A stretch of 64,000 bases of DNA from Mayamaea pseudoterrestris (Eukaryota), in NCBI GenBank assembly GCA_027923505.1, contig BROI01000008.1, positions 930,001-994,000 of the forward strand. The letters run 5' to 3'. Under the pieces are notes generated by a model. The model had not been told where the DNA came from and did not search any database. It saw only the letters and a program-made list of their open reading frames with translations. Both the position numbers and the translations under genes were made by a program. Numbering within the stretch: the stretch's first letter is position 1; each line of letters starts with the position of its first letter. Of the stretch, positions 1-63,563 are shown piece after piece.

Positions 1-3000
1 CGTCCAACTGGGTTTGCCATATGCTGTTGCAATCTTTCTGGATTTGATTTTAAATGGTTTCTTTAACCATCGACAGCGACACTTAGCCATGAAGACTGGT
101 GTGGTGTTGAGAGCGTCGCTCATCACTGTGCTGTACGAACGCGTGCTCAAACTGACACCACAAGGTCGTAGCGGCTTGACGAGTGGTCTAGTCAGTACGC
201 TGGTCTCGGTCGATTCTCAAAAGCTATTTGAAGTAGCGCAGGAGGGCCATTTGTTGTGGAGCTTGCCGTTGAGTGTGTTGATGGTAACCGCCCTGCTGTT
301 GTGGGTCATGGGCCCGACGACGCTAGTTGGAATTGCTGTGCTGCTCATGTTTGTACCAGTAGTTGGAAAAGTAACTTCAGTGTCCTTGGCGATTCGACAA
401 AAACGGGTCACAAAGACGGATGAGCGCATTGAAATCATCAATGCAATGCTACAAGGGGTGCGTTAATGTTGAGCTGGGTAATCTACAGAGGATGAAGCAA
501 TCTAAAAATACTTCTGCTTCTTCATTACAGATAAAGGTAACTAAACTGAATTGCTATGAAGAGAACTATAAGAAACGAATCATGGAGACCAGGGAGCAAG
601 AAGTAGCACTTTTAAAACGCGAACTGTCGGTTTGGGCATGCACTTTGTTCATGACGGTCCTCTCGCCCGTCTTAGCTACAGCGGCAACGTTCTCAGTATA
701 TGTACTGGTCGATGAAAATAACATTTTGACTGCAGCCAAAAGTTTTTCTGTGTTGCTCTTGTTCGCCGCTTTGCGATTTCCGATCAACTACGCTGGTCGT
801 CTTGTCGGCAGGGCAGCTCAAGCTCTCTCGGCCATTCATCGCTTGACACGCTTTTTGGACCGTGACGTGAGGGATGACTTTGCAGAGTCTAAATCAAGAG
901 ATGCGCAACAGGTGATGGTCAAAGAACCTTTAAACGATACAAAAGGAACTGATCCATTACTGATGCTTTCGAAGGCGGCTTTTACAGTCGGCGTCAACGA
1001 GACTGACATTACCATATCGGAGTTTGACTTGTCGGTCAAAAGGGGTGAAGTTCTCGCCGTATGCGGACCTGTTGGTAGCGGAAAGAGCTCGCTGTGCTTG
1101 GGGATCATTGATGAGCTCTCTAAGGCATCGTCTGACACTTTGGTGGAGCTGAAAGGGAATGTCGCTTTTGTTCCTCAGACTCCCTTCATTATGAATGCAA
1201 CACTTCGTGAAAATATAATGTTTGGTTTGCCTTTCAATGCAAATCTCTATGAAACAGTTCTTGACGCATGTCAGTTGAGGCATGACATTGAGCAGCTGGG
1301 CAAGGCAGGCGACCTCACTGAAATTGGCGAACGAGGAGTGACGTTGAGCGGTAAGCTGTGGCCTGATGGTTTACTGTTTACTTTTACTTGCGCCATGCAG
1401 TCTGACTAATCATTTCATTGTTGTGGTACATTGTCGCCACCCTTACCAGGAGGGCAGCGTCAGCGTGTGAGTCTTGCACGGGCGGCATACTCTCGCCCAG
1501 ATATTGTGCTGCTTGACGACCCATTGTCGGCGTTAGATTCAGGCACAGCGAAGGAAGTTTTTAGACGCTTAATTCGTGGGGAAGCCTCATTGTTCTGCGA
1601 TGCTGCGGTTATACTAGTGACGCATGCTTCTCAGTTTCTTAGTCGGTGCGACCAGATTCTTCTTTTAGTTGACGGGAAGAATAGCTTTCTTGGGTCATGG
1701 AATGATTTGTCTAAGTTTGAGCCTAGCGATACGAAAACAAAAGAAGCCGTGGAGCATTTGCAAAAGTCTTTGCAAGAGGGTCAGAAGCAGTACGATGGTG
1801 GTGATGATCTGGATGCAGATGTTGAGCCAAGTACCAAGAAGACGACGCCTGATGCACTTATGACTATCGAAGAGCGAGAGCATGGACTTTCGAGCCTGAA
1901 TACATGGCTACTTTGGTTCCGTCATGCCGGTGGTATGCAGTTTCTCGGGTTGCTGATCCTGGCGATGATATTTGATCGACTTGCGTATGTTGCTTCGGAA
2001 TTTTGGCTTGGTAAGGGGAGATAAGGAATTGATCTGAATCGGCGCATGAGAACTGATTCTGTGATTCAGCTTCTTACAAAATTTTCCTTTTCAGCTCGTT
2101 GGACGGGGGGAGCCGATGGTCCTGTAACGGTATTTGGGAAAGAATATCCATCGCAAACTGACGGACGATCTGCGCAATATCAGTACCTGAAGGTTTACAG
2201 TATCATTCTTCTTTTTTCTGTCATTGGCACGATTGCAAGGTCTGAATGGGCCGTGACAGGAGGGACCAGGGCGGCTCGCAAAGTATTTTCCAAAATGTTG
2301 ACGCAGGTTTTAGGTTGCCCGCTGACTTATTTTGAGACAACTCCCATGGGACGAATTGTGAATCGCTTCACGTACGATATGGAGGTTGTTGATGTCTCGC
2401 TCACTCAAAATATGTCAGTCCTACTTATTTCTTTGGGCTGGTACTTTGCGGGCGTGCTGGTCATGGCTGTCATTCTGCCCTATACGCTTTGCGCCATTCT
2501 TCCCGTGACGTGGCTCTACTGGCTGCTTTTGCTACACTACCGCAAATCGGGTGCTGATCTACAGCGGCTTGATGCAGTCAGTCGCTCGCCTGTCCAAGCT
2601 ATGGTGGCGGAGGCTCTTGATGGTTCTGCTTCAATTCGCGTCTTTCAGAAGCAGGTTACTTTCTTATTAAAGTACTTTCGTGCAGTCGATGACAACACGT
2701 CTGCCCTGTTAAATTTTGTTTCGGCTCAGCGATGGCTTGGCATTCGGATCGAACTACTTGGATCAATGGTTGTTCTTGTTAGTACTTCACTGGTTGTATG
2801 TTTAAATGACGTGTTTCAGTTGAGTCCTGGTATTATCGGATTGATGGTTATCTGGAGCAGCAATTTCACGATAACGCTCGGGTTCTTGGTGGACGCCTTT
2901 GGTGAAGCCGAGGCGGCAATCACTGCCATCGAACGTGTTGACGCAATGTCGCGATTGAAGCAAGAGAATTCTATGACGACGGAGGAAGCCAAGCGACCTG

Positions 3001-9053: not shown

Positions 9054-10517
9054 ATGAGTGAACCAGTTGCAGTGGCTGCACCGTCCGACACTACCACTAC
9101 TACATCCACCACTGAGAAGGAGGAGGAAAAGATTCCAGAGGCTACTGCGCCAAAGGAAGTCAAAGCAAAGAAAGCGGAAATTCCCAAAATCAATCTCCAA
9201 AAGAAGGATGACAGCGAGGAACTTACCAAGCGCCTTCAAAAGCTCGCGCTTGAACGTCAAAAGCAAAATGTCAATGATCGCCTCCGCGTTATTCAGTCGG
9301 ATCAATCCTCCCATTTGAGTTCCGCTAAAACATTCCAGGAATTGAATCTCCCAAAACATTTGCTAGATGCTCTCTTTGCCATGGGATTTGATCGGCCATC
9401 GGCCATTCAGGAGGAAGCTCTACCGCGCATTCTTGCCAATCCACCACGCAACCTCATCGGACAGGCGCAGTCGGGCTCGGGGAAGACGGCGGCATTTACT
9501 CTCGGCATGCTCTTTCGTATCAATGTTGACGCTCCCGCGACGACGCAAGCTCTCTGTGTCACGCCGACGCGAGAGTTGGCCGTGCAGATTGTCGACAAGG
9601 CTATCAAGCCAATGGCAGCCAACATGGCGGGTCTCAAGATTGAACTGGCGATCGCGGGTGCCAATGTGGAACGAGGGACCGCACTTGATGCGCATTTGGT
9701 GGTTGGAACGCCCGGGAAGGTGGTGGATTGGCTGAAGCGCCGGTTGATCAACTCCAAAACAATCAAGGTATTTGTTTTGGACGAAGCGGATCATATGGTG
9801 GATGAAGGAGGACATCGCGCAAACTCGTTACTCATTAAGAAGGTACTTCCTAAGAACTGCCAATGTTTATTCTTTTCCGCAACCTTTCCCGAAGAAGTTG
9901 TCAAGTTTGCCACGAAAATGGTGGACAAGCCGGACAAGATTCTGATTGAGGACGGTCCCGAGTTTTTGGTTTTGGACGTGATCAAGCAACTATGGATCGA
10001 CACGCGCGGATACCAAGGCGGAAAGCTTGCTTTCCTAGCTGACATTTACTCGCTCTTGACGATCGGCCAAAGCATTGTTTTTGTTGGGACAGTCCGCGAC
10101 GCTGACATGGTGCATCAGACGCTCGCCGATAATGGCTTCACATGTTCAGTCCTGCACGGCCGCGTTGAAGGCGCCATGCGCGATGTCACTATGGAAGCCT
10201 TTCGCAACGGAGAGTCTAATGTACTCATTACGACAAATGTCTTGGCTCGTGGTGTTGACGTTGACAATGTTTGTCTCGTGGTAAATTACGACATCCCTTG
10301 CGACAAGGATGGCAATCCAGATTTTGAAACCTATTTGCATAGGATTGGACGCACTGGGCGATTCGGACGAAAGGGTACAGCAATTAATCTTGTGGATGAT
10401 GAACGGTCGCTGCAGATTCTATCGGCCATTGAGCGGTACTTTGCCAAGGGCGACACTGAAATGATTCATCAAGCGGATGCTGACGCGGAAGCGCTTGCCG
10501 AGATTGTAGAAATCTAA
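9054..10517 (+). CDS. DBP5: DEAD-box RNA helicase DDX19/Dbp5 (mRNA export)
   Basis: Q motif GFDRPSAIQ, AQSGSGKT, PTRELA, DEAD, SAT and YLHRIGRTGRFG. LANPPRNLIGQ and DFETYLHR are typical of Dbp5. Confidence 0.93.
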   Translation: MSEPVAVAAPSDTTTTTSTTEKEEEKIPEATAPKEVKAKKAEIPKINLQKKDDSEELTKRLQKLALERQKQNVNDRLRVIQSDQSSHLSSAKTFQELNLPKHLLDALFAMGFDRPSAIQEEALPRILANPPRNLIGQAQSGSGKTAAFTLGMLFRINVDAPATTQALCVTPTRELAVQIVDKAIKPMAANMAGLKIELAIAGANVERGTALDAHLVVGTPGKVVDWLKRRLINSKTIKVFVLDEADHMVDEGGHRANSLLIKKVLPKNCQCLFFSATFPEEVVKFATKMVDKPDKILIEDGPEFLVLDVIKQLWIDTRGYQGGKLAFLADIYSLLTIGQSIVFVGTVRDADMVHQTLADNGFTCSVLHGRVEGAMRDVTMEAFRNGESNVLITTNVLARGVDVDNVCLVVNYDIPCDKDGNPDFETYLHRIGRTGRFGRKGTAINLVDDERSLQILSAIERYFAKGDTEMIHQADADAEALAEIVEI

Positions 10518-10555
10518 AACTAAGTTACATTATATAGGCGATATTTTATTACTCA

Positions 10556-13177
10556 TTACTCTTGCATCATGCCATCGACATCGCAGCTCTTCAGGGCGGC
10601 CTTCAAGTTTGCCCTGAATTTGCTCCCTTTCTTGTATTTTGGGCTGGATTTCAGGACGCGGACAAAGAAGATGGTAAAACTTGCTCTTAGCGCGTCACCT
10701 TCGTCCAGCAAATCCAGTTCATCGCTAGCACTAGCAGCGTCCTTTTTGGGTTTCTTTTGAGCAACACCCATTGCAAATAATTCCGCAGCGTCTGACGGTG
10801 CTTCACAATGATCCATGACGGCAGAGAAGAAGAGTGTAGCAAAGATCATGGCCGCTTCGGGTAGCTCGTCAGGTGAGGCAAGATCAATGGCCTTGAGTAC
10901 GTTGAGCTTCAGAGTGCGGTGAACGACGACGAGCTGAAATAGTAGTTTGGCATAGTTGGCAGCCTTTCGGATCTTCATGTCGTCAAACTGCTTAAACATG
11001 TCCCAAAAGGCAAGCTGGAAGCTAAACTTGGATTGCGGTTGATACTCTGCAATCCGCGCAGCCAAATAGGCATATACCTTGTTAAATTCCTTCTCGCTTC
11101 CACAGCATTCCATCAGCACTCTGACAGTCTCGCGTTCGTTCCTTCCCTTGAGCATTCCAGCGCGAACCAACTTTTCGAACGCATCCTCGCAATCCGCTGA
11201 ACCCATGATTATACAGAAAATCGAGCGCCGAACATCTGTATTCATGCGATATTTTGCGGCAAGCTTAAGCAAGCGCGCCTGTTCTTCGTCGCTTACTTCA
11301 AAAACTGTGGTGTTCGACGCGACCTTCTCAATTTCACTTTTATCATTCTCTCCGCTTTCAGTAAACTGGTGCTGGTTACCAATCCAAGAAGCGCCAATCT
11401 TCCACCAGCGCCCCTTCGTTTCAGCATTTAAGATATCATCCAGGGAGAGACGAAGAGAAGAATCGGCTCGGATGGCTGTTTTGGCGGCGATACTCTTGAT
11501 CTGACCCAGCATTTTGCGAAGCTTGCTCGTCTTTTGGGTAAAGACCTCGTCTTGCTTGCGCTTCTTATTATTCTTAAGATCATTGATAGCCGAAACCATG
11601 TAATCGACTCGCGAATAATTTCCAATCGTTCCCTTGACTTCCAACGCCCGCTTCTGAACCAGCAGCACTATGTCCTTCAGGGATGTAGGATCGTCGGACC
11701 GCAAAGACCGTCCCGAATGACTTAACATGAGGAGAAGAAGCTCGATGTCTCGCTCACTGAAATCACTGATAAACTCCCGGATGAGATCATACAACAGCGT
11801 GCAATGAATGGCGCCAAAATTATACAAATAACACAGCATCAGCGTGAGGTTTGATGCCGACTTGTCACTAATGGGATCAGCCGGCTCATCCTTTTCTGCA
11901 CCATTGTCTGCCAATGGTGTCTGTCGTTGCTCCCATAAGATCGTGACGCACTGTTCAACCAAGTACTCGCTAAGTTGTGCCGTGTCGCCCATTAAGTAAT
12001 GTACACCCGTCACTGCCGCCATGTAGACTGGTATCAAACCGCTCATAAGCAGGTGCGGAGCTACGCATGCGTTCTGCGCGTTGCTCCACAGGCACTCATT
12101 GACAACAGAGGTTGGATTTGCGGGGTAAATCGTTTGAACGACCTCTTGACAAACTGAAACGACGTTGTCTTCGGACAATCGATTGAGAATTTGGTTCAAT
12201 GCTCGTCGAACTTGTCGAGCTGCTGCTAATTGAGCCTTGTCATCCTTGTCATTGCATTTATCGCTACTATCTTCCTGCTGTTTGCGCAAGTGGGGCGGCA
12301 CATATTTGCTTGGAGCTGATTTCGGGCCTGAGTCAAGCTTTCTCTTGCCGTAAATGTCTTCGCCTTTGCTCGGCCGATAGGTGTCCGGCACCACCTCCGC
12401 GCCAATTTCTTCTTCTTCTTCTTCCTCTTCGTCTTCTCCTTCTTCTTCGTCCTCCTCCTCGTCACTCTTATTCATATCATCCTCATCCTCATCGTCGACT
12501 GTTTCGTCCGCCGTTCGTTCCTCGGCTTCCAACTCTTCCATGACGCTGTCATCGTCGTCAAGGCCGTCGTCATCCTTCATTGGTAGCTCCTCGTCCTCGT
12601 CATCATTCACTTCATCACTAGAGCCATCAGAGTAGCTGTCTACACTTTCGTCCTCCCGCTTGCTGCCCAGCATACTGTCACCATCGGAAGCGTCGTCACA
12701 GTCGCTACCAGTGTCTCTCGCAATCCGACCAACAAGCCCATCCAAATCATCCAAAAAGTCGCCAAAATCATCTCCGTATCCTTCCAATTTTGCAAATTCC
12801 TTGCCAAGTCGTTGTTTTTGCTTCTTATTGGTCATGCCCAAGTTGCGTTCCAAGTATGCGATTTCTTCGTCGTCCCGTCGAAGGGCGGCGGCCGTGGCCG
12901 GGTCCAAATGAGCGTATGGATCATTCGACTTTGCAATTTTCGTTTCTTCCTTAACTTGGTCTTTTTTGTGCTTCTTGTTCTTGACTTCTTCTTTCTTCTT
13001 AGACTGAGACAGCCCGTCAAGTGTCGGTCGAGCGCCTGTATTTTTCGTTGGAAGGACAGGGGGAGGCTGATCATCCTCCGAGTCTCGACGCTTACGCTTC
13101 TGCCTGTCTAGTTTCCTTCTATCCTTGCGACTCTGGACATGTGTAACAATAGATTTTTGCTTGCTCTTGTTCTTCAT
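10556..13177 (-). CDS. NOM1: Nucleolar MIF4G + MA3 domain protein (NOM1/Sgd1)
   Basis: Acidic/basic N-terminus, KYVPPHLR, LNRLSEDN (MIF4G), KGRWWKIGASW and KYRMNTDVRRSIFCIIMGSADCEDAFEKL (MA3). Confidence 0.9.
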   Translation of the reverse strand: MKNKSKQKSIVTHVQSRKDRRKLDRQKRKRRDSEDDQPPPVLPTKNTGARPTLDGLSQSKKKEEVKNKKHKKDQVKEETKIAKSNDPYAHLDPATAAALRRDDEEIAYLERNLGMTNKKQKQRLGKEFAKLEGYGDDFGDFLDDLDGLVGRIARDTGSDCDDASDGDSMLGSKREDESVDSYSDGSSDEVNDDEDEELPMKDDDGLDDDDSVMEELEAEERTADETVDDEDEDDMNKSDEEEDEEEGEDEEEEEEEEIGAEVVPDTYRPSKGEDIYGKRKLDSGPKSAPSKYVPPHLRKQQEDSSDKCNDKDDKAQLAAARQVRRALNQILNRLSEDNVVSVCQEVVQTIYPANPTSVVNECLWSNAQNACVAPHLLMSGLIPVYMAAVTGVHYLMGDTAQLSEYLVEQCVTILWEQRQTPLADNGAEKDEPADPISDKSASNLTLMLCYLYNFGAIHCTLLYDLIREFISDFSERDIELLLLMLSHSGRSLRSDDPTSLKDIVLLVQKRALEVKGTIGNYSRVDYMVSAINDLKNNKKRKQDEVFTQKTSKLRKMLGQIKSIAAKTAIRADSSLRLSLDDILNAETKGRWWKIGASWIGNQHQFTESGENDKSEIEKVASNTTVFEVSDEEQARLLKLAAKYRMNTDVRRSIFCIIMGSADCEDAFEKLVRAGMLKGRNERETVRVLMECCGSEKEFNKVYAYLAARIAEYQPQSKFSFQLAFWDMFKQFDDMKIRKAANYAKLLFQLVVVHRTLKLNVLKAIDLASPDELPEAAMIFATLFFSAVMDHCEAPSDAAELFAMGVAQKKPKKDAASASDELDLLDEGDALRASFTIFFVRVLKSSPKYKKGSKFRANLKAALKSCDVDGMMQE

Positions 13178-14547: not shown

Positions 14548-16929
14548 CTATGTGTAGACTTGAATCATGTCGTTCAATATGCCACACGTATTTTCACCCA
14601 TCGCGACATATGCGTAGCCATTCATACCAAAGTAGGTGGACCATTGGTTGCGAATGATCCAGTATCCAGTTCGTTGTGACTCGCCTTTGTCGTTGCTGTG
14701 ACCGCCGTCACCACTGTCCTTCTTCTCATCTTCATTACCGTCGCCGCCACTCGTCGTGAAAGCGTATCCAACCGCCTGGACGCAGTGATTTACATCCATA
14801 AATGCAGAGCTGCATCCAGAGTCTGATGTTATTATACCACCAGAGTAGTCTTGCCACAGCGAAGCGTCCACACATACGATCGCAGGTCCATAAGTCGCAA
14901 GGTTGCGAACCGCCAAGCCTTCGTTTTGTGAATCGCAGTCGCAGCCAGACCCGTCCGTGTAACAAACGCATCGATCCGTAGCATATCCGTATCCTTTAAT
15001 CTCGCTACCATATCGCTTGTAGCTGGTTCCTCCACTGCCGTCACCATCCTGCGAGTGGGAATTGCCCCCGCCGCCACCCACTGGACATATTGTGTTTCGG
15101 TAATTTTGGAGGTAATTGTCATCTGTTGCATCATCCGATTCGCCATCCAATGCCTTGGTCAATGTCAAGAGCAAGTCAGCATTATACTTGAGATCTGACT
15201 CAAGCGGCACACCATTATTATTTATTACATAGTCAATGGCATCTTGTGGCCAACCGCCGCTACACATTTGACAATCGTCGGTGCATACAATGACTTCATG
15301 TTCCGACAAGTCATTCAAGACACCCGTCGCCAGCGCCACGGCCGATTCCACAGTCTCAGTGGCTGTGATAGCCCAACAAGCCCCGCAACTGCCCTGGGAA
15401 TGAACATCGGTTACAATTCCATAGTCGCGCCAATCCCATGCAGTTGGGTAAGAGTCGGCATCGTAGGCGGGTTCCATCGTCCCTCCAAATCCGTAAACAT
15501 ACGTTTCAAAAAAGTAGCGAAGAAAACAGCTTACATCATAGATGCTGCAGTCGCGGTAGTTGGATTGTCGCTTGTTTGAATAATGAACGTTGCCATCTTT
15601 CATTGACTGCATTCTTCTTCGAACATCAGCATGTCGACTCCCGCCTTCGTGCTGACCCATGACTGGTACTGGTCGATCATCGTGCAGCTTGCGAGTTACG
15701 TTATAGGCATTCAAGTACTGCGCTTTAAACTCCTCCGACGTCAAGTCTGAAAATGACGTAACGCCAAAGACCGGCTGCCCAGTAAGTTGACAGGGTCCAT
15801 GGCGTTCATTTTTTGCCGCCGTCCTTTGGTGATTGTCGCGCCAAACGGCAAAGCGCTTGGTCATTTCTTTTCGCGTGGGATAGCTCTTGTTATGGTTTAC
15901 TGCCCAGTCCTTAAAGTCAGACCACAGCTGACGACGATTGGGCATGAGTCGCCGATGTGATTGTTTAGTTCTGGTCGGGTCTCCGCGGTGTTGATTGTGT
16001 TGCTGCAGAGCCCGATTATGATGACTATGATGAGACTGTATTGTATCTGGAGTAGATTGTAATTGCAATGGTCGAAGAATTACAGTAGCTGAATTTGGAA
16101 TTTGCACCGCGTTGTATTGCTCGTCATACCCTGCAGCCTCGTTCAAGGGATATTGCTGTTGCTGGTCCAGCTTTTGCATTTGTGCGTCATCCATGGCAAC
16201 AATTCGAACCATTGACGAGGACATGGATGATGAGTAGTCTATCATGCCATTTGTTAGTTGCGAATTATTACTGGTTTGATTGCTGGGCTGTTTCATGTGA
16301 TGAAAAACGACAACAACCGTTCCAATCGCAATCACCATGGCTGAAAGTCCAACCCAAACCTGCACGTAGCCTAGGAGACGTCGGAGCAAAATCAAGGTTG
16401 TGCGAGATGAAGCATGGTTGCTATAGTAGCCGTGCTCATATTCCATCCCTTCCAGTGGAAGTGTTCGGTGAAAGAAATTACTGCTCGGGCGTTTCTTGGT
16501 TTGGCCACCATCGTCATCATTTTGTATATTTTGACTTGATCCTCGACCGGAATCCAAGGAAATTCTTCTATGCGTCAATAGCAAGCCCGACTTTGTTTGA
16601 ATTGGTGCATTGACCTGGTAGCGAGATGCAGAATGCTGCAATTGTTGTTCCGTCTTTCCGTCTCGTTCGGGTGTCCGAGGAGGCTCGTCCTCCATTTCCA
16701 AGAATCCGGCCACACCGGGAACTGGAGCTTTCTTAACAATATCACTGAATTCTATGGTTTCTTGTTCGTCGTCCGTCTCTTCATGATCTAAAAGAGACCC
16801 TTGTTGTACAGTGTTTGAGTGCAAAACAGCGTCGTTGTATGGATCAAACGATTCGAGATTGGTGGAGTCTTGTTGGGACGAATCGTCGGCTGAATGCTGT
16901 GATAACGGATGTATAACACTACTCATCAT
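14548..16929 (-). CDS. Papain-family (C1A) cysteine protease with I29 prodomain and N-terminal membrane anchor
   Basis: QGSCGACWA (Cys), VNHCVQAVGY (His), WIIRNQW (Asn), WDWRDYG. Prodomain F..W...HNKSY..FSDLTSEEF. One TM segment at about aa 190-210. Confidence 0.92.
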   Translation of the reverse strand: MMSSVIHPLSQHSADDSSQQDSTNLESFDPYNDAVLHSNTVQQGSLLDHEETDDEQETIEFSDIVKKAPVPGVAGFLEMEDEPPRTPERDGKTEQQLQHSASRYQVNAPIQTKSGLLLTHRRISLDSGRGSSQNIQNDDDGGQTKKRPSSNFFHRTLPLEGMEYEHGYYSNHASSRTTLILLRRLLGYVQVWVGLSAMVIAIGTVVVVFHHMKQPSNQTSNNSQLTNGMIDYSSSMSSSMVRIVAMDDAQMQKLDQQQQYPLNEAAGYDEQYNAVQIPNSATVILRPLQLQSTPDTIQSHHSHHNRALQQHNQHRGDPTRTKQSHRRLMPNRRQLWSDFKDWAVNHNKSYPTRKEMTKRFAVWRDNHQRTAAKNERHGPCQLTGQPVFGVTSFSDLTSEEFKAQYLNAYNVTRKLHDDRPVPVMGQHEGGSRHADVRRRMQSMKDGNVHYSNKRQSNYRDCSIYDVSCFLRYFFETYVYGFGGTMEPAYDADSYPTAWDWRDYGIVTDVHSQGSCGACWAITATETVESAVALATGVLNDLSEHEVIVCTDDCQMCSGGWPQDAIDYVINNNGVPLESDLKYNADLLLTLTKALDGESDDATDDNYLQNYRNTICPVGGGGGNSHSQDGDGSGGTSYKRYGSEIKGYGYATDRCVCYTDGSGCDCDSQNEGLAVRNLATYGPAIVCVDASLWQDYSGGIITSDSGCSSAFMDVNHCVQAVGYAFTTSGGDGNEDEKKDSGDGGHSNDKGESQRTGYWIIRNQWSTYFGMNGYAYVAMGENTCGILNDMIQVYT

Positions 16930-45995: not shown

Positions 45996-46492
45996 CTGTA
46001 AAAATGTAGGGTTGATGCTTATGGTCGATCATATAATCACATATACTTTATCTTCTTGACTTGATGGGACTATTTCGTAACTAATCAAACTAACGCTAGC
46101 TCCATGCTCGGTCGTTGGATGCAGTTGCATGGAACAGAAACGAGCGTTCTTCGGAGTCATGAAGGGCGATACGTCGGCATTGAAAACTCATAAATACTCG
46201 GCCGGCGCGCAAGACCACAAATCAGATGCAGCGACGAGTTCATGTGGAGGCGGTGGTCATCACACACGCGACGGCAGCAAACGACACACATTATTGAAAG
46301 ACCTGTCGCTCGCTCGAGTCTTCACTTTATATATACCAAGGTAAGCTTCTAAGCGATGATGTATATGGCAGTCAGTGCATTGAGGAAATGGTGGAGACGG
46401 CTAACTTTTTGAACGCAGCTGGATACTAATGTTTGGCTCTCTTTCCGTCGGAAAAGCCATACAGGAGTCTTCGACATATTAGCGAAACGAGA

Positions 46493-55625: not shown

Positions 55626-58537
55626 ATGAGAGTTTCTCGCTTAGCCCTGAATGGGCTCCTTGCCGTTGCTGCTGTCCTATGCTTTAATAGTCATGGTAGG
55701 TAGAGATTCAATATATGCTTTACGACAGCTCTGGACGCATTGGATCCAAAAACAATGCAGCGTGGTCGTCATGACCATCAAAAATTGGTTGATCGACGAC
55801 ATTCTGCTAACTGAATGCATACTTCTATAACAGGCATTGCATTTACTTCCGCGCAAGAGGCAACGTCAACTGCTGAAGCTGCTGCAACAACGACGTTAGA
55901 CCCAAACTCTGCTGCTGCTTCGCCTCCACCCGACGCGGAAACCTTTTCGTTTGATGCGCAAGTGGATAAAATGCTCCACATTGTGGTGAATTCCTTATAT
56001 CAGACACCTTCCATCTTTATTCGCGAACTCATTTCCAACTCGGCAGATGCGCTTGACAAAATTCGATACTACTTGCTGACCGAGCCCGAAAAATACAAGT
56101 CGACTGACATTGACTTTAAGGTGGAGATTGAATATGATGCTGAGAAAAAGACTTTGACGGTGCGAGATACTGGCGTTGGAATGACAAGGGAAGACATGAT
56201 TGCAAATTTGGGAACTGTAGCTAGATCGGGAACCACCAAGGTGAGTGGTGGAAGGAGGTCTTCGGTGGATTGCATGGATCTCTAGCCTCAAGTCGCTCAC
56301 TCTCGTCTTCCTTTCTATACATTATTATCAGTTTGTAGAGGCGCTCAAGGAGAGCGGAAATGCTGATGCAACCATGTCGCAGATTGGTCAATTTGGTGTT
56401 GGTTTCTACTCGACATTTTTGGTAGCCGACAAGGTTTCGGTGGCTTCCAAGGTACGTGACGAAAAGACGACGAGTGATGATGCTTGGCTGTCCCTCAACA
56501 AAGTTTACTCACTTTTTTTTTGCACTTTGTCAGAATCCGACGGATCCTATTCAGCATGTTTGGGAGTCGAGCAACGGATCGAGTGACTTTACCGTTTACC
56601 CCGATCCACGAGGAAACACGCTTGGGCGCGGAACTGAAATTACTCTTCATCTTAAGGAGGATGCGCTTGAGTACACGGACCCAAACCGACTCAAAAGCTT
56701 GGCGCAACACTACTCAGAGTTTGTCATGTACCCCATTTCTCTGCGGACGACGCACACTATTGAAGTCGAAGACGATGAGGACGATGATGTTACTGAAAAA
56801 ACCCCACAGTCCGACGAAGATTTGGAAGTATCTGACGAGGACGAGCCAGTAGAAAAACCAAAGAAGATGAAGGAGGTGACATCGTATGAATGGGAGCGCT
56901 TAAATAGCAATCAAGCGATTTGGACGCGCGACAAGGACGAGATTACGGACGATGAGTACCAGGCATTCTATCATGTAAGTGAACCTTGAAGGCAGTTGGC
57001 ACCCACTGAACTTCGAAACTATATACTTAACTATTGTTCTTCGTCCTTGTTCCTTGTTGAATTGCAGGTGCTCTCGGGCAGCGAATACACGAATGCTACA
57101 ACATGGGTGCACTTTAACGCGGAAGGAAACATTAATTTTAAGTCGATTCTTTATCTGCCGGAGGACATTCCTGCTTCCTACCGCTACGGTAACATTGACA
57201 CTGTGACAAGTGCGATGAAACTCTACGTTCGTAAGGTATTGATTGGCGACGATTTTGATGTCATGCCCAAGTACCTTGGCTTCATTCGTGGTATCATTGA
57301 CAGCGAGGACCTGCCGCTTAACGTAAACCGCGAAACGCTACAGGAGACCAAGATATTGCAAGTTATTAAGAAGAAGGTTGTCCGAAAGGCTATTGATCTT
57401 ATCGCGCAGTTTGCTCGGGACAGTGAAGAAGAGGCAGCGAAAGCCAAGGGCGAGAAGGACGAGGAGGGAAATGACGTTATTGCGGCGAACAAGTACATTG
57501 AGTGGTACAAGAAGTTTTCTCCGAATATCAAACTAGGTATGATTGAAGACGAACCAAACCGCGCCAAGCTGGCGAAGCTTGTTCGATACCCTACGTCGAA
57601 ATCCAAAGGCGAACTCGTTTCTTTGAGCCAATACGTGGAGAACATGAAGGATTGGCAGAGGGAGATTTTTGTCATCGGTGGAACCAACGTTGAAGAAATA
57701 GAGAAAAGTCCCTTTATCGAGACCTTCCGCGAAAAAGACGTCGAAGTAATTTATATGACTGACGCGCTTGACGAATATTTGGTCCAAAACGTTCGAGACT
57801 TTAACGGTAAGAAGTTTGTTCAGGCGACATCGGAAAGTGTCAAATTTAAGGATGAAGACGAAGACTTGACGAAGCGACGGGAAAAAGTGTACAAGAAGAA
57901 GTTTACTCCCTTGACCAAGTGGCTTAAGAAGCTCGTTGGAAACAGTGTCCTGCGTGTCCAGGTTGCCAAGCGAGGTTTGGGCTCAGTGCCTGCTATTGTC
58001 TCTAGTTCGGAGTACGGCAACAGCGCAAACATGGAGCGCATTATGCGCGCCCAAGCCTTTCAGCACGGAGTTGATCCATCGGGCATGATGTCCATGCGCG
58101 TCTTCGAAATTAATCCTCGGCACCCGCTCATCATCAAGCTCTTGGAAGGTTGCCCACCCGAAAACGACAAGGAAGGCGATGAAGCTTTTAATGTTTCTCA
58201 AGAAACTATTGATGCTGCGATGATGATTCATGACATGGCAATGTTGGCTGGTGGATTTCCTATTAGCGATTTCAAGGGACACAACCGCCGGCTGTCGAAG
58301 ATTTTGAAAGAGAAGATGGGACTGGAAAGCCTCAAGCTAGAACCGGAGTTGGATCCACCTGTGGAGGACGATGAAGTTCCCGACGGAGAAGACATTGGCG
58401 GAGGCTTGAACATGGAAGACTTTGCGGGATTGAATATGGAAGACTTTGGCGGCGGCGCAAACTTTATGAGCGCTGACGATTTGAAAAACATGAACTTTGA
58501 CCTTGGTGACATGATGGCAGACAATGATGAGCTTTAG
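55626..58537 (+). CDS. HSP90B1: ER Hsp90 / endoplasmin (GRP94) (5 exons)
   Basis: Signal peptide [69 protein letters not shown] and C-terminal NDEL. Introns 55696-55833, 56241-56331, 56452-56533 and 56975-57067. Confidence 0.95.
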
Positions 58538-58700: not shown

Positions 58701-60685
58701 ATGGCGATCCAGGGAATCATCAAACCACCACCAGAGATCCGTGCTGTGGCGGACCGAACAGCTTTGTATGTCGCTAAGAATGGACGAGCATTTGAGTCGA
58801 GGATTCTGAATAGCGATAAGGGCAAGACGCCAAAGTTTTCCTTTTTGCAGGTGACGAGTCCATTTCACGAGTATTACGAAGAAAAAGTAAAGTTCTACGA
58901 GAGTGGTGGGACAGACGAGAAGGAAGAGAAGAAGGAAGAAGAAAAGAAAAATTTGGAACTTGCCGAAGAGAAAGTACGCCAGACTGAGAAGCAAGAAAAG
59001 ACGCAACGCGCAAGTGCCATTGATCCGATTGCCAAGGCCTTGCTCGACCAACGATCCAAAATCAAGCAGCGCCGCGCGGCTGAGGAAAGACCAGAAACTA
59101 AAGATGAAACTGGTGTTCTAGACCTGCCATCGTCGATATCTCGTCCTGCTCTGCAGTTTATCAATATCGTGGCCCCGGCCTCGCTATCGATTGCGGAGGT
59201 TGAGGCGATACAGCTCGTTGCCCAATTTACTGCCTTGGATGGACGCAATGGGACGTTCCTTTCGCAACTCATTCACCGCGAATGGAACAATCCGCGCTTT
59301 GCGTTTGCACAGCCTCGTCATGGACACTTTGCGTACTTCAGCTCGCTTGTGGACGCCTACCGAACGATTCTCACGAACTGGACTGCTCCAGCAGGAGTCT
59401 CGACGGACTATGTCAAGGATCTGTCTGGCAACGTCGACAAATGTTTGGAAACTGCTGCATACTGGGCCGAGATTGAACGGGACGAGGAAGAGCGAGCTCG
59501 TAACGAAGATGCGCCGAACGCTGGTGCCATGATTGATTGGCAGGATTTCATTGTTGTCGAGACAATTGACTTTGGAGCACATGAAACTGTGGACATGATG
59601 CCACCTCCGCCACCTGCTGTGCTTTCGCAACATGCAGCGGTTGTTGACGAGGGCATGGATGTTTCAGAAGACGAAGATGAACAAATTCGAGTGGTACCGT
59701 CGTATCAACCAAAGATTGCGACCCAGGCGGCACCTGCTGCAATGGTTATTGATCCTATCACTGGCAAAGCTGTCGCTGCCAAGGACATGTCTGAACACAT
59801 GCGTATTCAATTGCTTGATCCTAAATGGGCGGAAGAGAAGAAGAAGTTCCAGGAGAAGCAAAAGGATAGCAATCTCGTCTCGGGCGATGTGGTTGCGGCC
59901 AATCTCTCTCGCTTCACGCAGGCCATAGGCGAATCGAGGGTAAGTATACTCATTCCTGGCTGTATTGAGTGTACACTAATTATTTATTGGTTGTATACTA
60001 ATGGCGCCTTCTTCTACAGGACCAAGACTTTCTGAGCCAAGCCGAATCGAAGAAGAAACTTGATGAAGCAAACCGTATCCTTCGCGCACAAGGTCAGGGT
60101 GCCACTGTCGGCCCAGCTTTACCGCAGCAGCAGCGACCAAGAACCGGCCCATCCCGTCCCGGTCCGACCATTGGAGAAGCAGAGCCCGACGCCAAGCGTG
60201 CCAAGGTACAAGTCACGCATATCGAGGCACCGACCATACCAACTATTCCACTGCCTCCCGGCTTTGATGGTCAGACGTCGATAACAGGAACCGATGACCC
60301 ATTTGCTGCTGCAGGAACTGCACTCATGACAGGAGCGATAGAATCAGACGCGAAGCCGCTTCTTCCCGAAGCCGACTTTGTGGCATCGTTGGACAAGCCA
60401 GACGTCACGCTGCAAATTCGCATTCCAAATGACTCCACCCAAATCGCTTGGAACTTTTACGGCCAAATTGTAGCTCAGATTGCAAATGTCATGTCAACAA
60501 TCAAGAGTGTCAAGCAAGAGCTCTCCCAGAAGCATTTAAACAACATGCCGGCCAATAAAATCCAGCTGAAGAATCAAGCAACTGGATCGTTCTTAAAAGA
60601 CGGGTCAACGCTTGCCGCGTTAAATCTGGGACCGACGGCATCCCTGGAGCTAGTACCACGCGCAAGAGGCGGAGGTCGTAAATAG
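58701..60685 (+). CDS. SF3A1: Splicing factor 3A subunit 1 (Prp21) (2 exons)
   Basis: Two SURP domains (GIIKPPPEIRAVADRTALYV; IQLVAQFTA), IDWQDFIVVETIDF, EHMRIQLLDPKW and a C-terminal ubiquitin-like domain ending RGGGRK. Intron 59940-60019. Confidence 0.95.
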
Positions 60686-60772
60686 TTCGTCTGGCCAGGT
60701 CGATGTAAATCGCAACGTTGTGTGAGCTTGAATTTTGCAAACAAATGATTACGCACGACAAGTAAAAAGCAT

Positions 60773-60886
60773 TCTTATCAGTAGTAATATAACAGGAACA
60801 ACAGTATTCTACATCGAACCTTGTTGACAGCCCATTTTGGACGTCGATTCTCGTAGCGAGCTGGGTGTATGTTTACATCATAAAGA
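60773..60886 (-). ncRNA. Box C/D snoRNA, U29/snR71-like (LSU Am2946 yeast numbering); 3' end uncertain
   Basis: Box C-like ATGATGT (60881-60875). Guide ACCCAGCTCGC (60866-60856) is complementary to LSU GYGAGCUGGGU and is followed by T and D' ACGA, so the +5 rule hits the A. Candidate box D CTGA at 60781-60778. Confidence 0.68.
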
Positions 60887-61021
60887 CCCTGCAGCAAATG
60901 TTGACAACGCTGTACGAGAGCTTACCTCTTCAGCGACGTCAGGACGATCACTGCAACAGCAAACAGATGACATAAGTGAGACATCTGGACAAACGAATTG
61001 ATCATTACATTGATAAAGTGC

Positions 61022-61107
61022 CATCGATCGGTTTGAATAACTGTTTGAAAGAGTATCGTCAGAGAAAATCGGACTGGGGCGGCAATCAACAACTCGTCAC
61101 TTCGATG
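61022..61107 (-). ncRNA. Box C/D snoRNA, U31/snR67-like (LSU P-loop Gm2619 yeast; E. coli G2251 equivalent)
   Basis: 6-bp terminal stem CATCGA/TCGATG, box C GTGACGA, guide TGCCGCCCCAGT plus D' CCGA, C' CTGACGA and D CCGA. The +5 rule hits the second G of CUGGGG. Confidence 0.88.
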
Positions 61108-61291
61108 TGTCTGCAAGAAATGTAGCTATTCTGCTTCATCACCTTACCTGTAATCCTCTTATTCTCGGTATGTATGCACTCTCTGCCATGCTTGTCTAAG
61201 TGATAAGAGAATGACAATGCGGTGAGTTTCAAAGTTGCTCGTTGCTGTGCACCAGCGTCGTCCTCTTGACAGTTTCTTCTTTCGTCCGCGT

Positions 61292-61371
61292 CAAGAGTCA
61301 GTGTAACTATGACAATATACAATCACGGCGAATCGCTCAAGCTGTAACATTAAAGTTTCGTCATTCTCTCG
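61292..61371 (-). ncRNA. Box C/D snoRNA, U46/snR63-like (LSU helix 69 Am2256 yeast; E. coli A1913 equivalent)
   Basis: Stem CGAGAG/CTCTTG and box C ATGACGA. Guide GTCATAGTTAC (61313-61303) is complementary to GUAACUAUGAC and is followed by A and box D CTGA. Confidence 0.88.
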
Positions 61372-61399
61372 CGTGTATGGACCGCTTTCAAGTTCGTGC

Positions 61400-61501
61400 T
61401 GACCGATCAGAGTATATTGAAAGGATGGATTCATCAATCGCTCGGACAAACAAGCGTCAAGAAGGGGAATCCGAAATCTCATTCTCTCTTCATTTCGATC
61501 A
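61400..61501 (-). ncRNA. Box C/D snoRNA, family unassigned, with LSU-complementary element
   Basis: 7-bp stem TGATCGA/TCGGTCA, box C ATGAAGA, D' CCGA, C' TTGATGA and D CTGA. The 13-nt element TCGGATTCCCCTT is complementary to conserved LSU AAGGGGAAUCCGA. Confidence 0.8.
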
Positions 61502-61848
61502 AGCTTCACGACTTCTCTCTATCTTAGTATTCGTTGTCTCTTTCTTACCTTCGTCCATCTACCAAGGAAGAAACGATGGAGTTGCCCGCTTTGCACATGG
61601 TCCAATTGTGCGGAATTTTTTGAGTGGTGGTCGTCGAAACAATGTGTGTCGCATGTGTCGCATGAGAACCGAAGCGACGCTTGGAATGCGAAATCTCGTC
61701 GCATTTGGATCGAGCGATACATCCATCATGCATTCAACCAGCTGTCGCACTTCCTGCCATTAATATTAATCGCGTCGCGCCTATCGTTTCAGTCTCTGAT
61801 TCGATATCGCTAGAGCTTCTCTCAGTGCGGCATCAAAACTTCGAGCAA

Positions 61849-62745
61849 ATGGCTCAAGACCACAATGATCAAGACGAATCAGCATGGGATTGTTTGTCGA
61901 GCTACCTTGCCGAACCCGTTTCCACTCACTTTTCTCGACAACGATGCCCTGGTTGCCATGCATCCGTGACAATTTACTGTCACGATTGCTTGGACGTCAT
62001 GTTGCCTCGAGAAACTTGGCCAGCATCGGTTGCTGCCCAAGCTCTCCGACTCCCCTTTCAGCTTGACATTTTGCTCGACGATCGACGAGCGTCGTCTACC
62101 GGAGTACAAGTGGCGAGCATACTAAAAGCGGCAGGTCAAGAAACTAGCTTTAGAATATATGATCTCACCAAATGTGAGGACGATAAAGCTCTTCCAGATT
62201 ACACATCCACCGACGCCGACGACAACCATGATGGCACCTACCTACTCTTTCCTGACAGCTCGGCAGTAACACTTTCATCCGTTATCAAAAGTGGCAAACC
62301 AATCAAGCGTATCATTGTCATGGACTGCAAGTGGTCTAAATTTAGCAAAACTTTGGTTTTGCCTTTACACAAGGCAGTGGCGGATGTACCTCGCATCAAG
62401 CTTGAACTACCAGCGCACGTTGAGTCATTCTACTGGCGATGGCACAATGCGGGGGACGGTGCAGTCAGTACAATCGAAGCCATTTATTATGCGGCCCATC
62501 AAATTAGCGGAAAGTGTGTTTTGAATCAGCAAGAAAATGTCACAGCTAGCATGGATATACTGGACATATTTTGGCTGTTTCGCTTGCAGCGAAATATAAT
62601 TGCAAACCGATATGAGCAAGAATCGATTGAAAACCGGCGAGCATTTCCATTTTCGGCAGAGGGTAAGGAGTACAATCGTGCTTTACGTCGGGGACACAGT
62701 TTACAGCAGGCAGAGTCGGAACTGGACGTTGCAATGGAGGGTTAG
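61849..62745 (+). CDS. DTW-domain protein (DTWD1-like tRNA-uridine aminocarboxypropyltransferase)
   Basis: RQRCPGC..YCHDC zinc-like motif, LPFQLDI, SSTGVQ, LLFP, DCKW (DxTW variant), SFYWRW and STIEAIYY. Confidence 0.8.
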   Translation: MAQDHNDQDESAWDCLSSYLAEPVSTHFSRQRCPGCHASVTIYCHDCLDVMLPRETWPASVAAQALRLPFQLDILLDDRRASSTGVQVASILKAAGQETSFRIYDLTKCEDDKALPDYTSTDADDNHDGTYLLFPDSSAVTLSSVIKSGKPIKRIIVMDCKWSKFSKTLVLPLHKAVADVPRIKLELPAHVESFYWRWHNAGDGAVSTIEAIYYAAHQISGKCVLNQQENVTASMDILDIFWLFRLQRNIIANRYEQESIENRRAFPFSAEGKEYNRALRRGHSLQQAESELDVAMEG

Positions 62746-63490: not shown

Positions 63491-63563
63491 GGGAGCTTAG
63501 CTCAGTTGGTAGAGCGTCCGCTTCGCATGCGGAAGGTCTAGGGTTCGATTCCCTAAGTTTCCA
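63491..63563 (+). tRNA. tRNA-Ala (anticodon CGC)
   Basis: Cloverleaf: acceptor GGGAGCT/AGTTTCC with the G3:U70 alanine identity pair, D arm GCTC/GAGC, anticodon arm TCCGC-TTCGCAT-GCGGA, T arm CTAGG-GTTCGATT-CCCTA region and discriminator A. TTTT follows. Confidence 0.97.

Follow-up and report, generated by a model that had tools for sequence, protein, structure and literature searches.

Transcript and flanking genes

The window, which is the whole 64,000-nucleotide stretch of Mayamaea pseudoterrestris DNA analysed, carries a spliced minus-strand transcript between two plus-strand genes, SF3A1 and the gene of a DTW-domain protein. The last coding part of SF3A1 is located at 60326..60685 (+), with its stop codon at 60683-60685 and a weak ubiquitin-like match. 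The identity of this gene is given by Pfam matches to Surp (86.6 bits) and PRP21_like_P (94.1 bits), both upstream of 60326..60685. The DTW-domain protein gene, the divergent neighbour, is at 61681..62745 (+) and matches PF03942 with 36.6 bits against a cut-off of 33.7. Both flanking genes had been named in the original prediction, and the Pfam matches agree with these names.

Four public sequencing runs, all unlabelled and from one study, were compared with positions 59900-62000. Runs X3 and X4, two samples of one study without an RNA label, behave as cDNA, since they skip the plus-strand GT..AG intron of SF3A1 at 59939-60018 and give no cover in bins 61604-61674. Run X1 has colinear cover throughout 59900-62000 and zero joints. 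Three minus-strand joints, 61549^61195, 61148^60950, and 60926^60690, are each present in one contig of X3 and one of X4 and skip 353, 197, and 235 bases, respectively. On the plus strand each of the three main joints is bordered by CT..AC, corresponding to GT..AG on the minus strand. A fourth, alternative joint, 61148^61040, skips 107 bases and is also present in both runs. All three junctions predicted from the sequence, the last of them with an approximate acceptor at ~60690, were thus found in transcript-like contigs. A branch-point-like CTCAC, read from the intron tails, is located 25-31 nt upstream of each main acceptor, as had been predicted as well.

Exon 1 (61549..61596, minus strand) is represented by contig 61549-61596 in X3 and 61549-61592 in X4, where 61596 is a contig stop. 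Intron 1 (61196..61548, 353 nt, GTAAGA...TTAG, joint 61195/61549) contains sno1 and sno2, and is followed by exon 2 (61148..61195, 48 nt), intron 2 with sno3 (60951..61147, 197 nt, joint 60950/61148), and exon 3 (60926..60950, 25 nt). The alternative form of intron 2 (107 nt) uses the 3' splice site 61041|61040 (joint 61040/61148 in X3 and X4) and lengthens exon 3 to 115 nt (61040-60926). Intron 3 (60691..60925, 235 nt) contains sno4 and its joint 60690/60926 was found in X3 and X4. The start of exon 4 is annotated at 60601..60690; a contig with the SF3A1 mRNA runs through joint 60690/60926 into exon 3. All these features are coded on the minus strand. Because there are joints on both sides of the 48-nt (61195-61148) and the 25-nt (60950-60926) exon, both predicted tiny exons are real. 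Low-depth contigs also cross unspliced parts of the introns, e.g., 61226-61486 and 60702-60953. A pyrimidine run is visible by eye in exon 1.

Exon 4 begins 5 nt past the SF3A1 stop and runs antisense into the SF3A1 coding end. On the opposite side, the host contigs end at 61596 and 61592 and the DTW-side contig of X4 starts at 61713, with no RNA cover between them. The predicted divergent transcription with the DTW gene fits these contig ends in the window, but the DTW gene is the upstream neighbour in none of the relatives described below.

Box C/D snoRNAs

Each of the four snoRNAs lies inside 61548-61196, 61147-60951, or 60925-60691, except that the alternative isoform cuts sno3. All are coded on the minus strand, and a C box, a D box, and a terminal stem were found in all four, the D box of sno3 being degenerate. 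The snoRNA designated as sno1 (61399..61502, 104 nt) has an 8-bp terminal stem, C box ATGAAGA at 61493-61487, D' guide at 61474-61462, D' box TTGA at 61460-61457, C' box TTGATGA at 61437-61431, and D box CTGA at 61410-61407. The sno2 (61292..61371, 80 nt) has a 6-bp stem, C box ATGACGA at 61364-61358, D guide at 61313-61303, and D box CTGA at 61301-61298. These two are in tandem in intron 1 with a spacer of 27 nt, and the intron is removed as one unit.

The sno3 (61022..61107, 86 nt) has a 6-bp stem CATCGA/TCGATG, C box GTGACGA at 61100-61094, D' guide at 61084-61072, D' box CCGA at 61072-61069, C' box TGACGA at 61061-61056, and the degenerate D box CCGA at 61031-61028, whose position, like the stem, was set by the register with five relatives. 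The sequence GTGATGA at 61142-61136, next to the intron-2 donor, is a perfect C box but is not conserved among the relatives and was dropped from sno3. The sno4 (60773..60886, 114 nt) has a 4-bp stem, C box ATGATGT at 60881-60875, D' guide at 60866-60856, D' box ACGA at 60854-60851, C' box GATGTAGA at 60815-60808, and D box CTGA at 60781-60778. The four modules are present where they had been predicted and three are unchanged, but the third one had been delimited too short: the original 52-nt module 61106-61055 lies inside sno3 as delimited here (61107-61022).

When a uniform finder was run on both strands of the whole window, it gave 11 C/D candidates in 128 kb (0.086 per kb per strand). The 0.86 kb of minus-strand introns contains three of these 11, where ~0.07 would be expected, i.e., ~40x the window background. 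Among the other candidates of the window, an Rfam scan of 9800-10700 gave just weak matches at chance level.

Guides, predicted rRNA targets, and Rfam families

One guide of each snoRNA pairs with eukaryotic LSU rRNA in methylation register, in duplexes of 11-13 bp computed against LSU fragments of other eukaryotes; to this extent the predicted complementarity to LSU rRNA was borne out. All four have at least 10 complementary nucleotides with the target at the fifth nucleotide from D or D', and this nucleotide faces G, A, G, and A in sno1 to sno4, respectively. The guide of sno1 forms a duplex of 11-13 bp with LSU loci and would direct 2'-O-methylation of the second G in GGGGAAUCCGA. The predicted target of sno2 is an A in GUAACUAUGAC, namely the second A of GUAAC; in the shuffle control, 11 bp were reached in 20 of 60 shuffles, so the length of this duplex alone is not beyond chance. 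The 13-bp duplex of sno3 with LSU loci points to the second G of CUGGGGCGG as the putative methylated nucleotide, and this motif is missing in three of the ten LSU loci long enough to contain it. The sno4 guide forms an 11-bp duplex with GTGAGCTGGGT of the LSU loci and may direct methylation of an A in GUGAGCUGGGU (the A of GUGAGC), a target that is missing in three of six LSU loci. For sno4, the shuffle control scored as its longest duplex a match of 13 bp that takes in the C box, not the guide.

The second guides gave no consistent LSU target. Neither the sno1 D guide nor the sno2 D' guide is kept among the relatives. Four relatives keep the sno3 D guide and the distant relative L022 retains part of it; in the window it has diverged. 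The core TTCCTGTTAT of the sno4 D guide is shared by the window, L015, and L020.

At the gathering threshold, Rfam recognized only a tRNA in the whole window, and none of the four snoRNAs reached the gathering cut-off (40-60 bits), with family matches of 14.7-24.7 bits. The sno1 matches snoZ157 with 26.4 bits over its full length, and its homologue in L022 matches SNORD101. The sno2 matches SNORD46 with 20.1 bits, and its guide and D box are the same as the consensus across 18 nt. The sno3 scores 19.6 bits with SNORD31 and 16.0 bits with snoU31b, and sno4 scores 14.7 bits with snR71, while the L022 homologue of sno4 scores 24.7 bits with SNORD29. The best Rfam matches of the four snoRNAs or their L022 homologues align over the guide elements. 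The Rfam search proposed with the original prediction led to four families through the guide elements, but with all matches below the gathering cut-offs.

Guide elements of sno1 and sno2 fit the consensus of SNORD101 (RF00186) and SNORD46 (RF00218), and those of sno3 and sno4 the consensus of SNORD31/snR67 (RF00089/RF01177) and SNORD29/snR71 (RF00070/RF00479), whereas the remaining sequence is unrelated and the D box of sno3 is degenerate. The four Rfam families have target nucleotides of the kinds predicted here (G, A, G, and A); mouse Snord101 is described as guiding methylation of a 28S G (PMC11863803). As judged from the sequence, sno1 to sno4 are guide homologues of SNORD101, SNORD46, SNORD31/snR67, and SNORD29/snR71, respectively. 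This term was preferred and they were not filed as members, because the likeness is limited to the boxes and the guide.

Conservation in relatives

Eight metagenomic loci, representing five distinct sequences, all have the order sno1-sno2-sno3-sno4, and the sno1-sno2 tandem is also present in five out of five relatives. Donors and acceptors between the snoRNAs were predicted in all five; the splice sites of the relatives are predictions throughout. The aligned snoRNAs share 52-63% identity, and 24-41% of their columns are invariant, compared to 29-40% identity and 2-8% invariant columns in exons 1-3. Exon 2 alone is 29% identical to the relatives, with one invariant column out of 48, and its predicted lengths in the window and relatives are 48, 40, 42, 25, 27, and 23 nt.

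The guide and D' box of sno1 are invariant in all six sequences, and the sno4 guide is kept in all relatives. Compensatory changes were recognized in the sno2 stem (AGAG/CTCT, TGAG/CTCA, and CGAG/CTCG), and position 6 of the sno3 C box covaries with position 1 of its D box (G-C, G-U, A-U, and U-A). These changes were read by eye and by script on six sequences. The snoRNAs hence show conservation of boxes and guides together with compensatory change in the stem.

In three out of five relatives (L015/L016/L021, L017, and L020) the cluster is followed by SF3A1 in antisense orientation, and L019 and L022 have the whole cluster without SF3A1. Going by gene order, the conserved neighbour of the cluster is convergent SF3A1. 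In alignments of the five relatives, the guides, boxes, gene order, and flanking predicted splice signals are conserved and the exons are not. The comparison proposed earlier, in which snoRNAs should be kept but exons not, came out as expected in five relatives, with no ORF common to them.

Coding capacity and nature of the host transcript

The spliced RNA of the window has an ORF of 87 codons with ATG at 61558, open through all junctions. In the alternative isoform it has 117 codons, as the 90-nt extension of exon 3 preserves the frame. Of the 87 codons, ~60 lie antisense to the SF3A1 coding end. The relatives have no ORF in common, and their predicted spliced RNAs contain no junction-crossing ORF longer than 34 codons. 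L022 has a 78-codon Cys-rich ORF that stops 6 nt before the first donor. Neither this small ORF nor the exon-4 part of the window ORF had a match in Pfam. Poorly conserved exons without a conserved ORF, as looked for in a non-coding host, were therefore found, with splice sites predicted in the relatives and an 87-codon ORF in the window. The transcript had been described as apparently non-coding; this has to be qualified by the open 87-codon frame in the window, but the frame is not conserved in the five relatives.

The locus is very probably a dedicated non-coding snoRNA host of the UHG/SNHG type, with two snoRNAs in the first intron and with introns as the useful products. The minus-strand transcript would start near 61596 and be spliced at three GT-AG introns. 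According to established snoRNA biology, the C/D motifs would be recognized by core snoRNP proteins either in the pre-RNA or after excision of the intron, and exonucleases would then shorten the debranched intron as far as the protected parts. A box C/D snoRNA is in general a stable RNA of ~60-120 nt to which fibrillarin, Nop56, Nop58, and Snu13 are bound. The distance from the final snoRNA of an intron to the acceptor is 72-96 nt in the window, close to the optimum for splicing-coupled assembly in mammals. As the two snoRNAs of intron 1 are 27 nt apart, an internal cut is also needed there, as in plant-type clusters. The spliced exons would be a by-product RNA, with the last exon antisense over the SF3A1 3' end.

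The internal cut, which would be required anyway for sno1 and sno2 in their common intron with the 27-nt spacer, is also what an unspliced polycistronic precursor of the plant and yeast kind, cut up by endonucleases, would use, and the low-depth contigs across unspliced parts of introns 1 and 3 suit such a precursor. Splicing would then be incidental to snoRNA production. This is very unlikely, as the snoRNAs are framed by splice signals, observed in the window and predicted in each of the five relatives, despite the drift of exons, and the last snoRNA of each intron keeps its 72-96 nt from the acceptor in the window. Most animal snoRNA hosts are coding genes with snoRNAs in introns, and the host could likewise be a small protein-coding gene, with the 87-codon ORF (117 codons in the alternative isoform) translated. 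Its frame across three junctions, the in-frame 90-nt extension, and the Cys-rich ORF of L022 ending just before the first donor agree with this. Still, some 60 codons are explained as antisense of the SF3A1 coding end, the Pfam searches of the exon-4 part and of the L022 ORF gave no match, the predicted exon lengths of the relatives differ by non-multiples of three, their junction-crossing ORFs in predicted spliced RNAs do not exceed 34 codons, and exon identity is at background level, so a coding host has a slightly smaller probability still. The least probable explanation considered is that the spliced RNA itself has the main function, as an antisense regulator of SF3A1, and that the snoRNAs are passengers. 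It would account for the antisense start of exon 4 only 5 nt past the SF3A1 stop and for convergent SF3A1 in the window and three of five relatives, but L019 and L022 keep the full cluster without this gene, and upstream of the overlap the transcript is conserved in the snoRNAs alone.

Comparison with known snoRNA hosts

As a dedicated non-coding host, the locus resembles the vertebrate non-coding hosts UHG/SNHG1 and GAS5 in having a spliced Pol II transcript, whose exons are short and poorly conserved and contain no conserved ORF, and C/D snoRNAs in consecutive introns, the last one less than ~100 nt from the acceptor. SNHG1 hosts SNORD29 and SNORD31, which sno4 and sno3 resemble. Vertebrates have one snoRNA per intron, whereas intron 1 here has two. 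Other differences are the tiny exons of 48 and 25 nt, the overlap of the last exon with a convergent protein gene, and the very distant lineage. Hosts of the UHG/SNHG type typically have a 5'TOP start, and their spliced RNA is unstable and NMD-sensitive.

The original prediction had taken vertebrates as typical of this kind of host, and it is known there, but it is less exclusive, as conserved snoRNA clusters in introns of non-protein-coding hosts are also described from fungi (PMC3596301). The fungal polycistronic hosts share the intronic clusters in a non-coding transcript; they belong to another lineage with another set of snoRNAs, and some members of the clusters outlined in that source are in exons (PMC3596301). 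In plants and Ostreococcus, according to PMC7671301, one intron can release more than one snoRNA and intronic and polycistronic modes are mixed. Intronic snoRNAs of Ostreococcus are reported there in protein-coding hosts, and most clusters as independent intergenic units (PMC7671301). Several snoRNAs per intron are thus common to these systems and the locus, whereas the host found here has no conserved coding capacity.

From animals and fungi this layout is familiar, but for this algal group there is hardly any description of it. The diatom affinity was derived solely from the nearest named HSP90 hit, which belongs to the diatom Helicotheca tamesis (56% identity). A literature search on diatoms and other stramenopiles found no snoRNA catalogue or host-gene description, and very little is on record. 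Before the 2020 work on Ostreococcus, snoRNA characterisation in unicellular algae was, by the statement in that source, restricted to Chlamydomonas and Euglena (PMC7671301). The conserved block of four snoRNAs is usable for finding such genes in other genomes and for correcting gene models that leave the space empty or call spurious ORFs there. It also bears on the question of whether the placement of snoRNAs in introns of non-coding hosts is an ancestral trait of eukaryotes or has several origins. Four testable sites of rRNA methylation are predicted by the locus.

Alternative acceptor within sno3

Since sno3 runs from 61107 to 61022, the alternative acceptor 61041|61040 falls within it. The contig depth of the alternative and main joints is comparable in both runs (4 vs 5.9 and 13.1 vs 8.1). 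Each use of this acceptor would either destroy full-length sno3 or leave a 52-nt mini-module (61106-61055) with canonical CUGA. The LSU element CUGGGGCGG, the predicted sno3 target, is presumably the P-loop. It seems unlikely, but is worth considering, that the choice of splice site gates a universally conserved ribosome modification through the loss of sno3. If so, alternative splicing of a non-coding host would tune the sno3-guided methylation and, with it, ribosome heterogeneity.

Splicing of the Host Transcript

The snoRNA host gene between SF3A1 and the DTW-domain gene is a real and well-supported feature of the window. The minus strand of 60300–62000 was read, and contigs of four public sequencing runs (X1–X4, all without an RNA label, X3 and X4 being two samples of one study) were mapped on 59900–62000. 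Run X1 gave a single near-identical contig, colinear over the entire 59900–62000, and X2 was fragmented, with the joints absent. Runs X3 and X4 behave as cDNA-like samples. An 80-nt SF3A1 intron (59939–60018; GT..AG, plus strand) is skipped in both, and one contig in each carries each of the minus-strand joints 61195/61549, 60950/61148, and 60690/60926, which skip 353, 197, and 235 nt, respectively. These three main joints are CT..AC on the plus strand and thus GT..AG on the minus strand, and in the intron tails that were read CTCAC lies 25–31 nt upstream of each main acceptor. They coincide exactly with the junctions of the original prediction, and because of this agreement the tiny exons of 48 and 25 nt that it proposed are real.

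A fourth minus-strand joint, 61040/61148 (107 nt skipped), uses an alternative acceptor inside sno3 and therefore yields an alternative isoform without full-length sno3. Within the 107-nt intron of this isoform there remains a 52-nt module, which has an ATCG/CGAT stem and a canonical CUGA box. The host RNA contigs end at 61596/61592, and there is no cover over 61604–61674 in X3 or X4, which places the longer upstream minus-strand ORFs outside the transcript. The pyrimidine run TTTCTTCCTT in exon 1 (61572–61563, minus strand) is reminiscent of the 5'TOP motif with which snoRNA host transcripts of vertebrates begin.

snoRNA Anatomy and Proposed Processing

Intron 1 harbors sno1 (61502–61399) and sno2 (61371–61292), intron 2 sno3 (61107–61022), and intron 3 sno4 (60886–60773). 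The distance from the end of the last snoRNA to the acceptor in the window is 96, 72, and 82 nt, respectively. A C/D-box finder with uniform criteria (no more than one C-box mismatch, a CTGA, and a terminal stem ≥4 bp), run on both strands of the whole window, returned 11 candidates, three of them inside the 0.86 kb of introns where about 0.07 were expected. The same finder listed C/D-like modules with terminal stems of 4–6 bp at 46325–46222, 58134–58060, 56650–56551, and 33052–32977 on the minus strand and at 9978–10483 and 16018–16092 on the plus strand. An Rfam scan of 9800–10700 gave chance-level matches only. A perfect C box, GTGATGA, at 61142–61136 (minus strand), 5 nt past the intron-2 donor, was rejected as part of sno3: it is not conserved in relatives. 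A partner D box was not found for it.

The third snoRNA had been predicted with a wrong extent and D box. It is present, and its extent is set to 61107–61022 by the C-box/D-box register shared with relatives. The CTGA originally taken for its D box belongs to the C' box (TGACGA). In the window the actual D box is the degenerate CCGA, and the D guide has diverged from the version common to the relatives.

No match was found at the snoRNA locus at the Rfam gathering threshold. Matches below it were taken by E-value thresholds, and the best were snoRNA families aligned via the guide: SNORD46 for sno2 (20.1 bits; consensus matched over 18 nt, guide plus D box), SNORD31 (19.6 bits) and snoU31b (16.0 bits) for sno3, and snR71 (14.7 bits) for sno4. 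The likeness of sno1 to snoZ157 (26.4 bits across the full length) is one of architecture, not of guide. At L022, a related metagenomic locus, the homologues of sno1 to sno4 matched SNORD101 (18.5 bits), SNORD46 (17.6), snR67 (16.2), and SNORD29 (24.7), respectively. Since none of these scores reaches the gathering cut-off of its family, the four snoRNAs are regarded as guide homologues and not as family members.

Beyond the observed splicing, anatomy, conservation, and complementarity, processing would involve snoRNP assembly on the intron, then debranching and exonucleolytic trimming. Intron 1 would need an extra endonucleolytic cut within the 27-nt sno1–sno2 spacer.

Vertebrate UHG/SNHG1 and GAS5 are the textbook non-coding hosts with intronic snoRNAs. 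Such hosts are described for fungal snoRNA clusters too (PMC3596301), and several snoRNAs per intron are described as the mode of plants and Ostreococcus (PMC7671301). The locus in the window mixes a non-coding host of intronic snoRNAs with a multi-snoRNA intron of the plant/Ostreococcus type. Full-text literature searches on diatoms and other stramenopiles yielded no account of their snoRNA host genes; in the text retrieved from a diatom small-RNA paper, snoRNA appears only as a qPCR reference (PMC4247016).

Conservation and Coding Capacity

A single metagenome scan for sno1 and sno2 guides 135–165 nt apart gave eight loci representing five distinct sequences. These come from other species; the C-terminus of the SF3A1 protein is 64–74% identical. 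In all five, the sno1–sno2 tandem comes first, then sno3, then sno4, as in the window, and the spacing is similar. Compared with the five, the window has a mean identity of 63% for sno1, 54% for sno2, 54% for sno3, and 52% for sno4 (invariant columns 24–41%), and 32%, 29%, and 40% for exons 1, 2, and 3 (invariant columns 2–8%); the sno1–sno2 spacer has 21%. The sno2 stem shows compensatory changes (AGAG/CTCT, TGAG/CTCA, CGAG/CTCG). C-box position 6 and D-box position 1 of sno3 pair as G-C, G-U, A-U, or U-A with one U-C exception (five loci, by script), and as U-A at L022, the sixth, by eye. C-box position 2 and D-box position 2 canonically form a U/U pair. In the homologues of sno1 to sno4 at L015, L017, L019, and L020 this pair is often G/G (AGGACGA with CGGA), or U/G, G/U, or G/A; the sequences suggest that the kink-turn requirement at position 2 is relaxed or shifted in this lineage.

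All five relatives have a predicted GT[AG]NG donor before sno1, acceptor–donor pairs between sno2 and sno3 and between sno3 and sno4, and an acceptor after sno4. Implied lengths in the window and relatives are 48, 40, 42, 27, 25, and 23 nt for exon 2 and 25, 27, 53, 17, 38, and 82 nt for exon 3. The spliced RNA of the window has an ORF of 87 codons (117 in the alternative form), with ATG at 61558 and open through every junction. About 60 of the 87 codons run antisense to the end of the SF3A1 coding region, the exon-4 part has no match in a Pfam search, and the predicted spliced RNAs of relatives have no junction-crossing ORF above 34 codons; the ORF is read as fortuitous. On the snoRNA strand, L022 has a Cys-rich ORF of 78 codons (2281–2514, minus strand) that gave no match in a Pfam search and stops 6 nt short of the first predicted donor. 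In this most distant relative, a small coding gene may carry the snoRNA introns in its 3' UTR.

Predicted LSU rRNA Targets

Duplexes were scored on LSU loci of other eukaryotes, found by searching prokaryote assemblies for sequences complementary to the sno1 and sno2 guides at a spacing of 105–135 nt. The matches listed include at least 14 eukaryotic rDNA contaminant contigs (L001–L014) in assemblies deposited as bacterial or archaeal. L001 was recognized as LSU_rRNA_eukarya with 1476 bits; it also has a group I intron (59.2 bits). Because of this selection the sno1 and sno2 duplexes are present by construction; the co-occurrence of both sites at the searched spacing in LSU loci is itself a result. 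Beyond the imposed 11 nt, the sno1 duplex reaches 13 bp in seven and 12 bp in five of the 14 listed loci. Independently of the search pattern, the sno3 guide TGCCGCCCCAGTC forms a 13-bp LSU duplex. Of the ten loci that continue for 450 nt or more beyond the sno2 site, six have the target motif of sno3 and another has it cut by the locus end; the motif is absent in L004, L008, and L013. The sno4 guide, likewise independent of the pattern, forms 11 bp with GTGAGCTGGGT in 3/6 long-enough loci.

The duplex length of sno2 alone is not significant, 11 bp being reached by 20 of 60 shuffles, and the longest scored match in the sno4 control is a spurious 13 bp that includes the C box. The weight is therefore put on register, conservation, and likeness to known guides. 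The nucleotide opposite the fifth position upstream of D/D' is G, A, G, and A for sno1 to sno4, and these four LSU positions would be methylated. The LSU sites of SNORD46/snR63, SNORD31/snR67, and SNORD29/snR71 are A, G, and A, respectively. Mouse Snord101 is described as guiding a G methylation in 28S (PMC11863803). The gene order along the host (61502–60773, minus strand) equals the 5'-to-3' order of predicted targets in L014 (2001, 2133, 2459, and 2932) and L011; a four-item match by chance is 1/24.

Neighboring Genes

SF3A1 is convergent, antisense downstream of the cluster in the window, L015/L016/L021, L017, and L020, and is not beside it in L019 or L022. At L022 the genes that border the cluster encode an Atg3-like E2 and a prolyl-hydroxylase-like protein. 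The DTW gene is upstream in the window only. The cluster thus relocates as one unit; its association with SF3A1 is old, not obligatory.

Across the whole window, Rfam gave a single match above its gathering threshold, a tRNA gene at 63491–63563 (plus strand, 67.7 bits). The terminus ...NDEL of an HSP90-family ORF at 56996–58537 (plus strand) suggests an ER-resident chaperone of GRP94 type. Its closest database proteins, 87% and 80% identical, are metagenomic, and the one named match among the best 120, which is the basis for calling the window diatom DNA, is HSP90 of Helicotheca tamesis, a diatom, with 56% identity.
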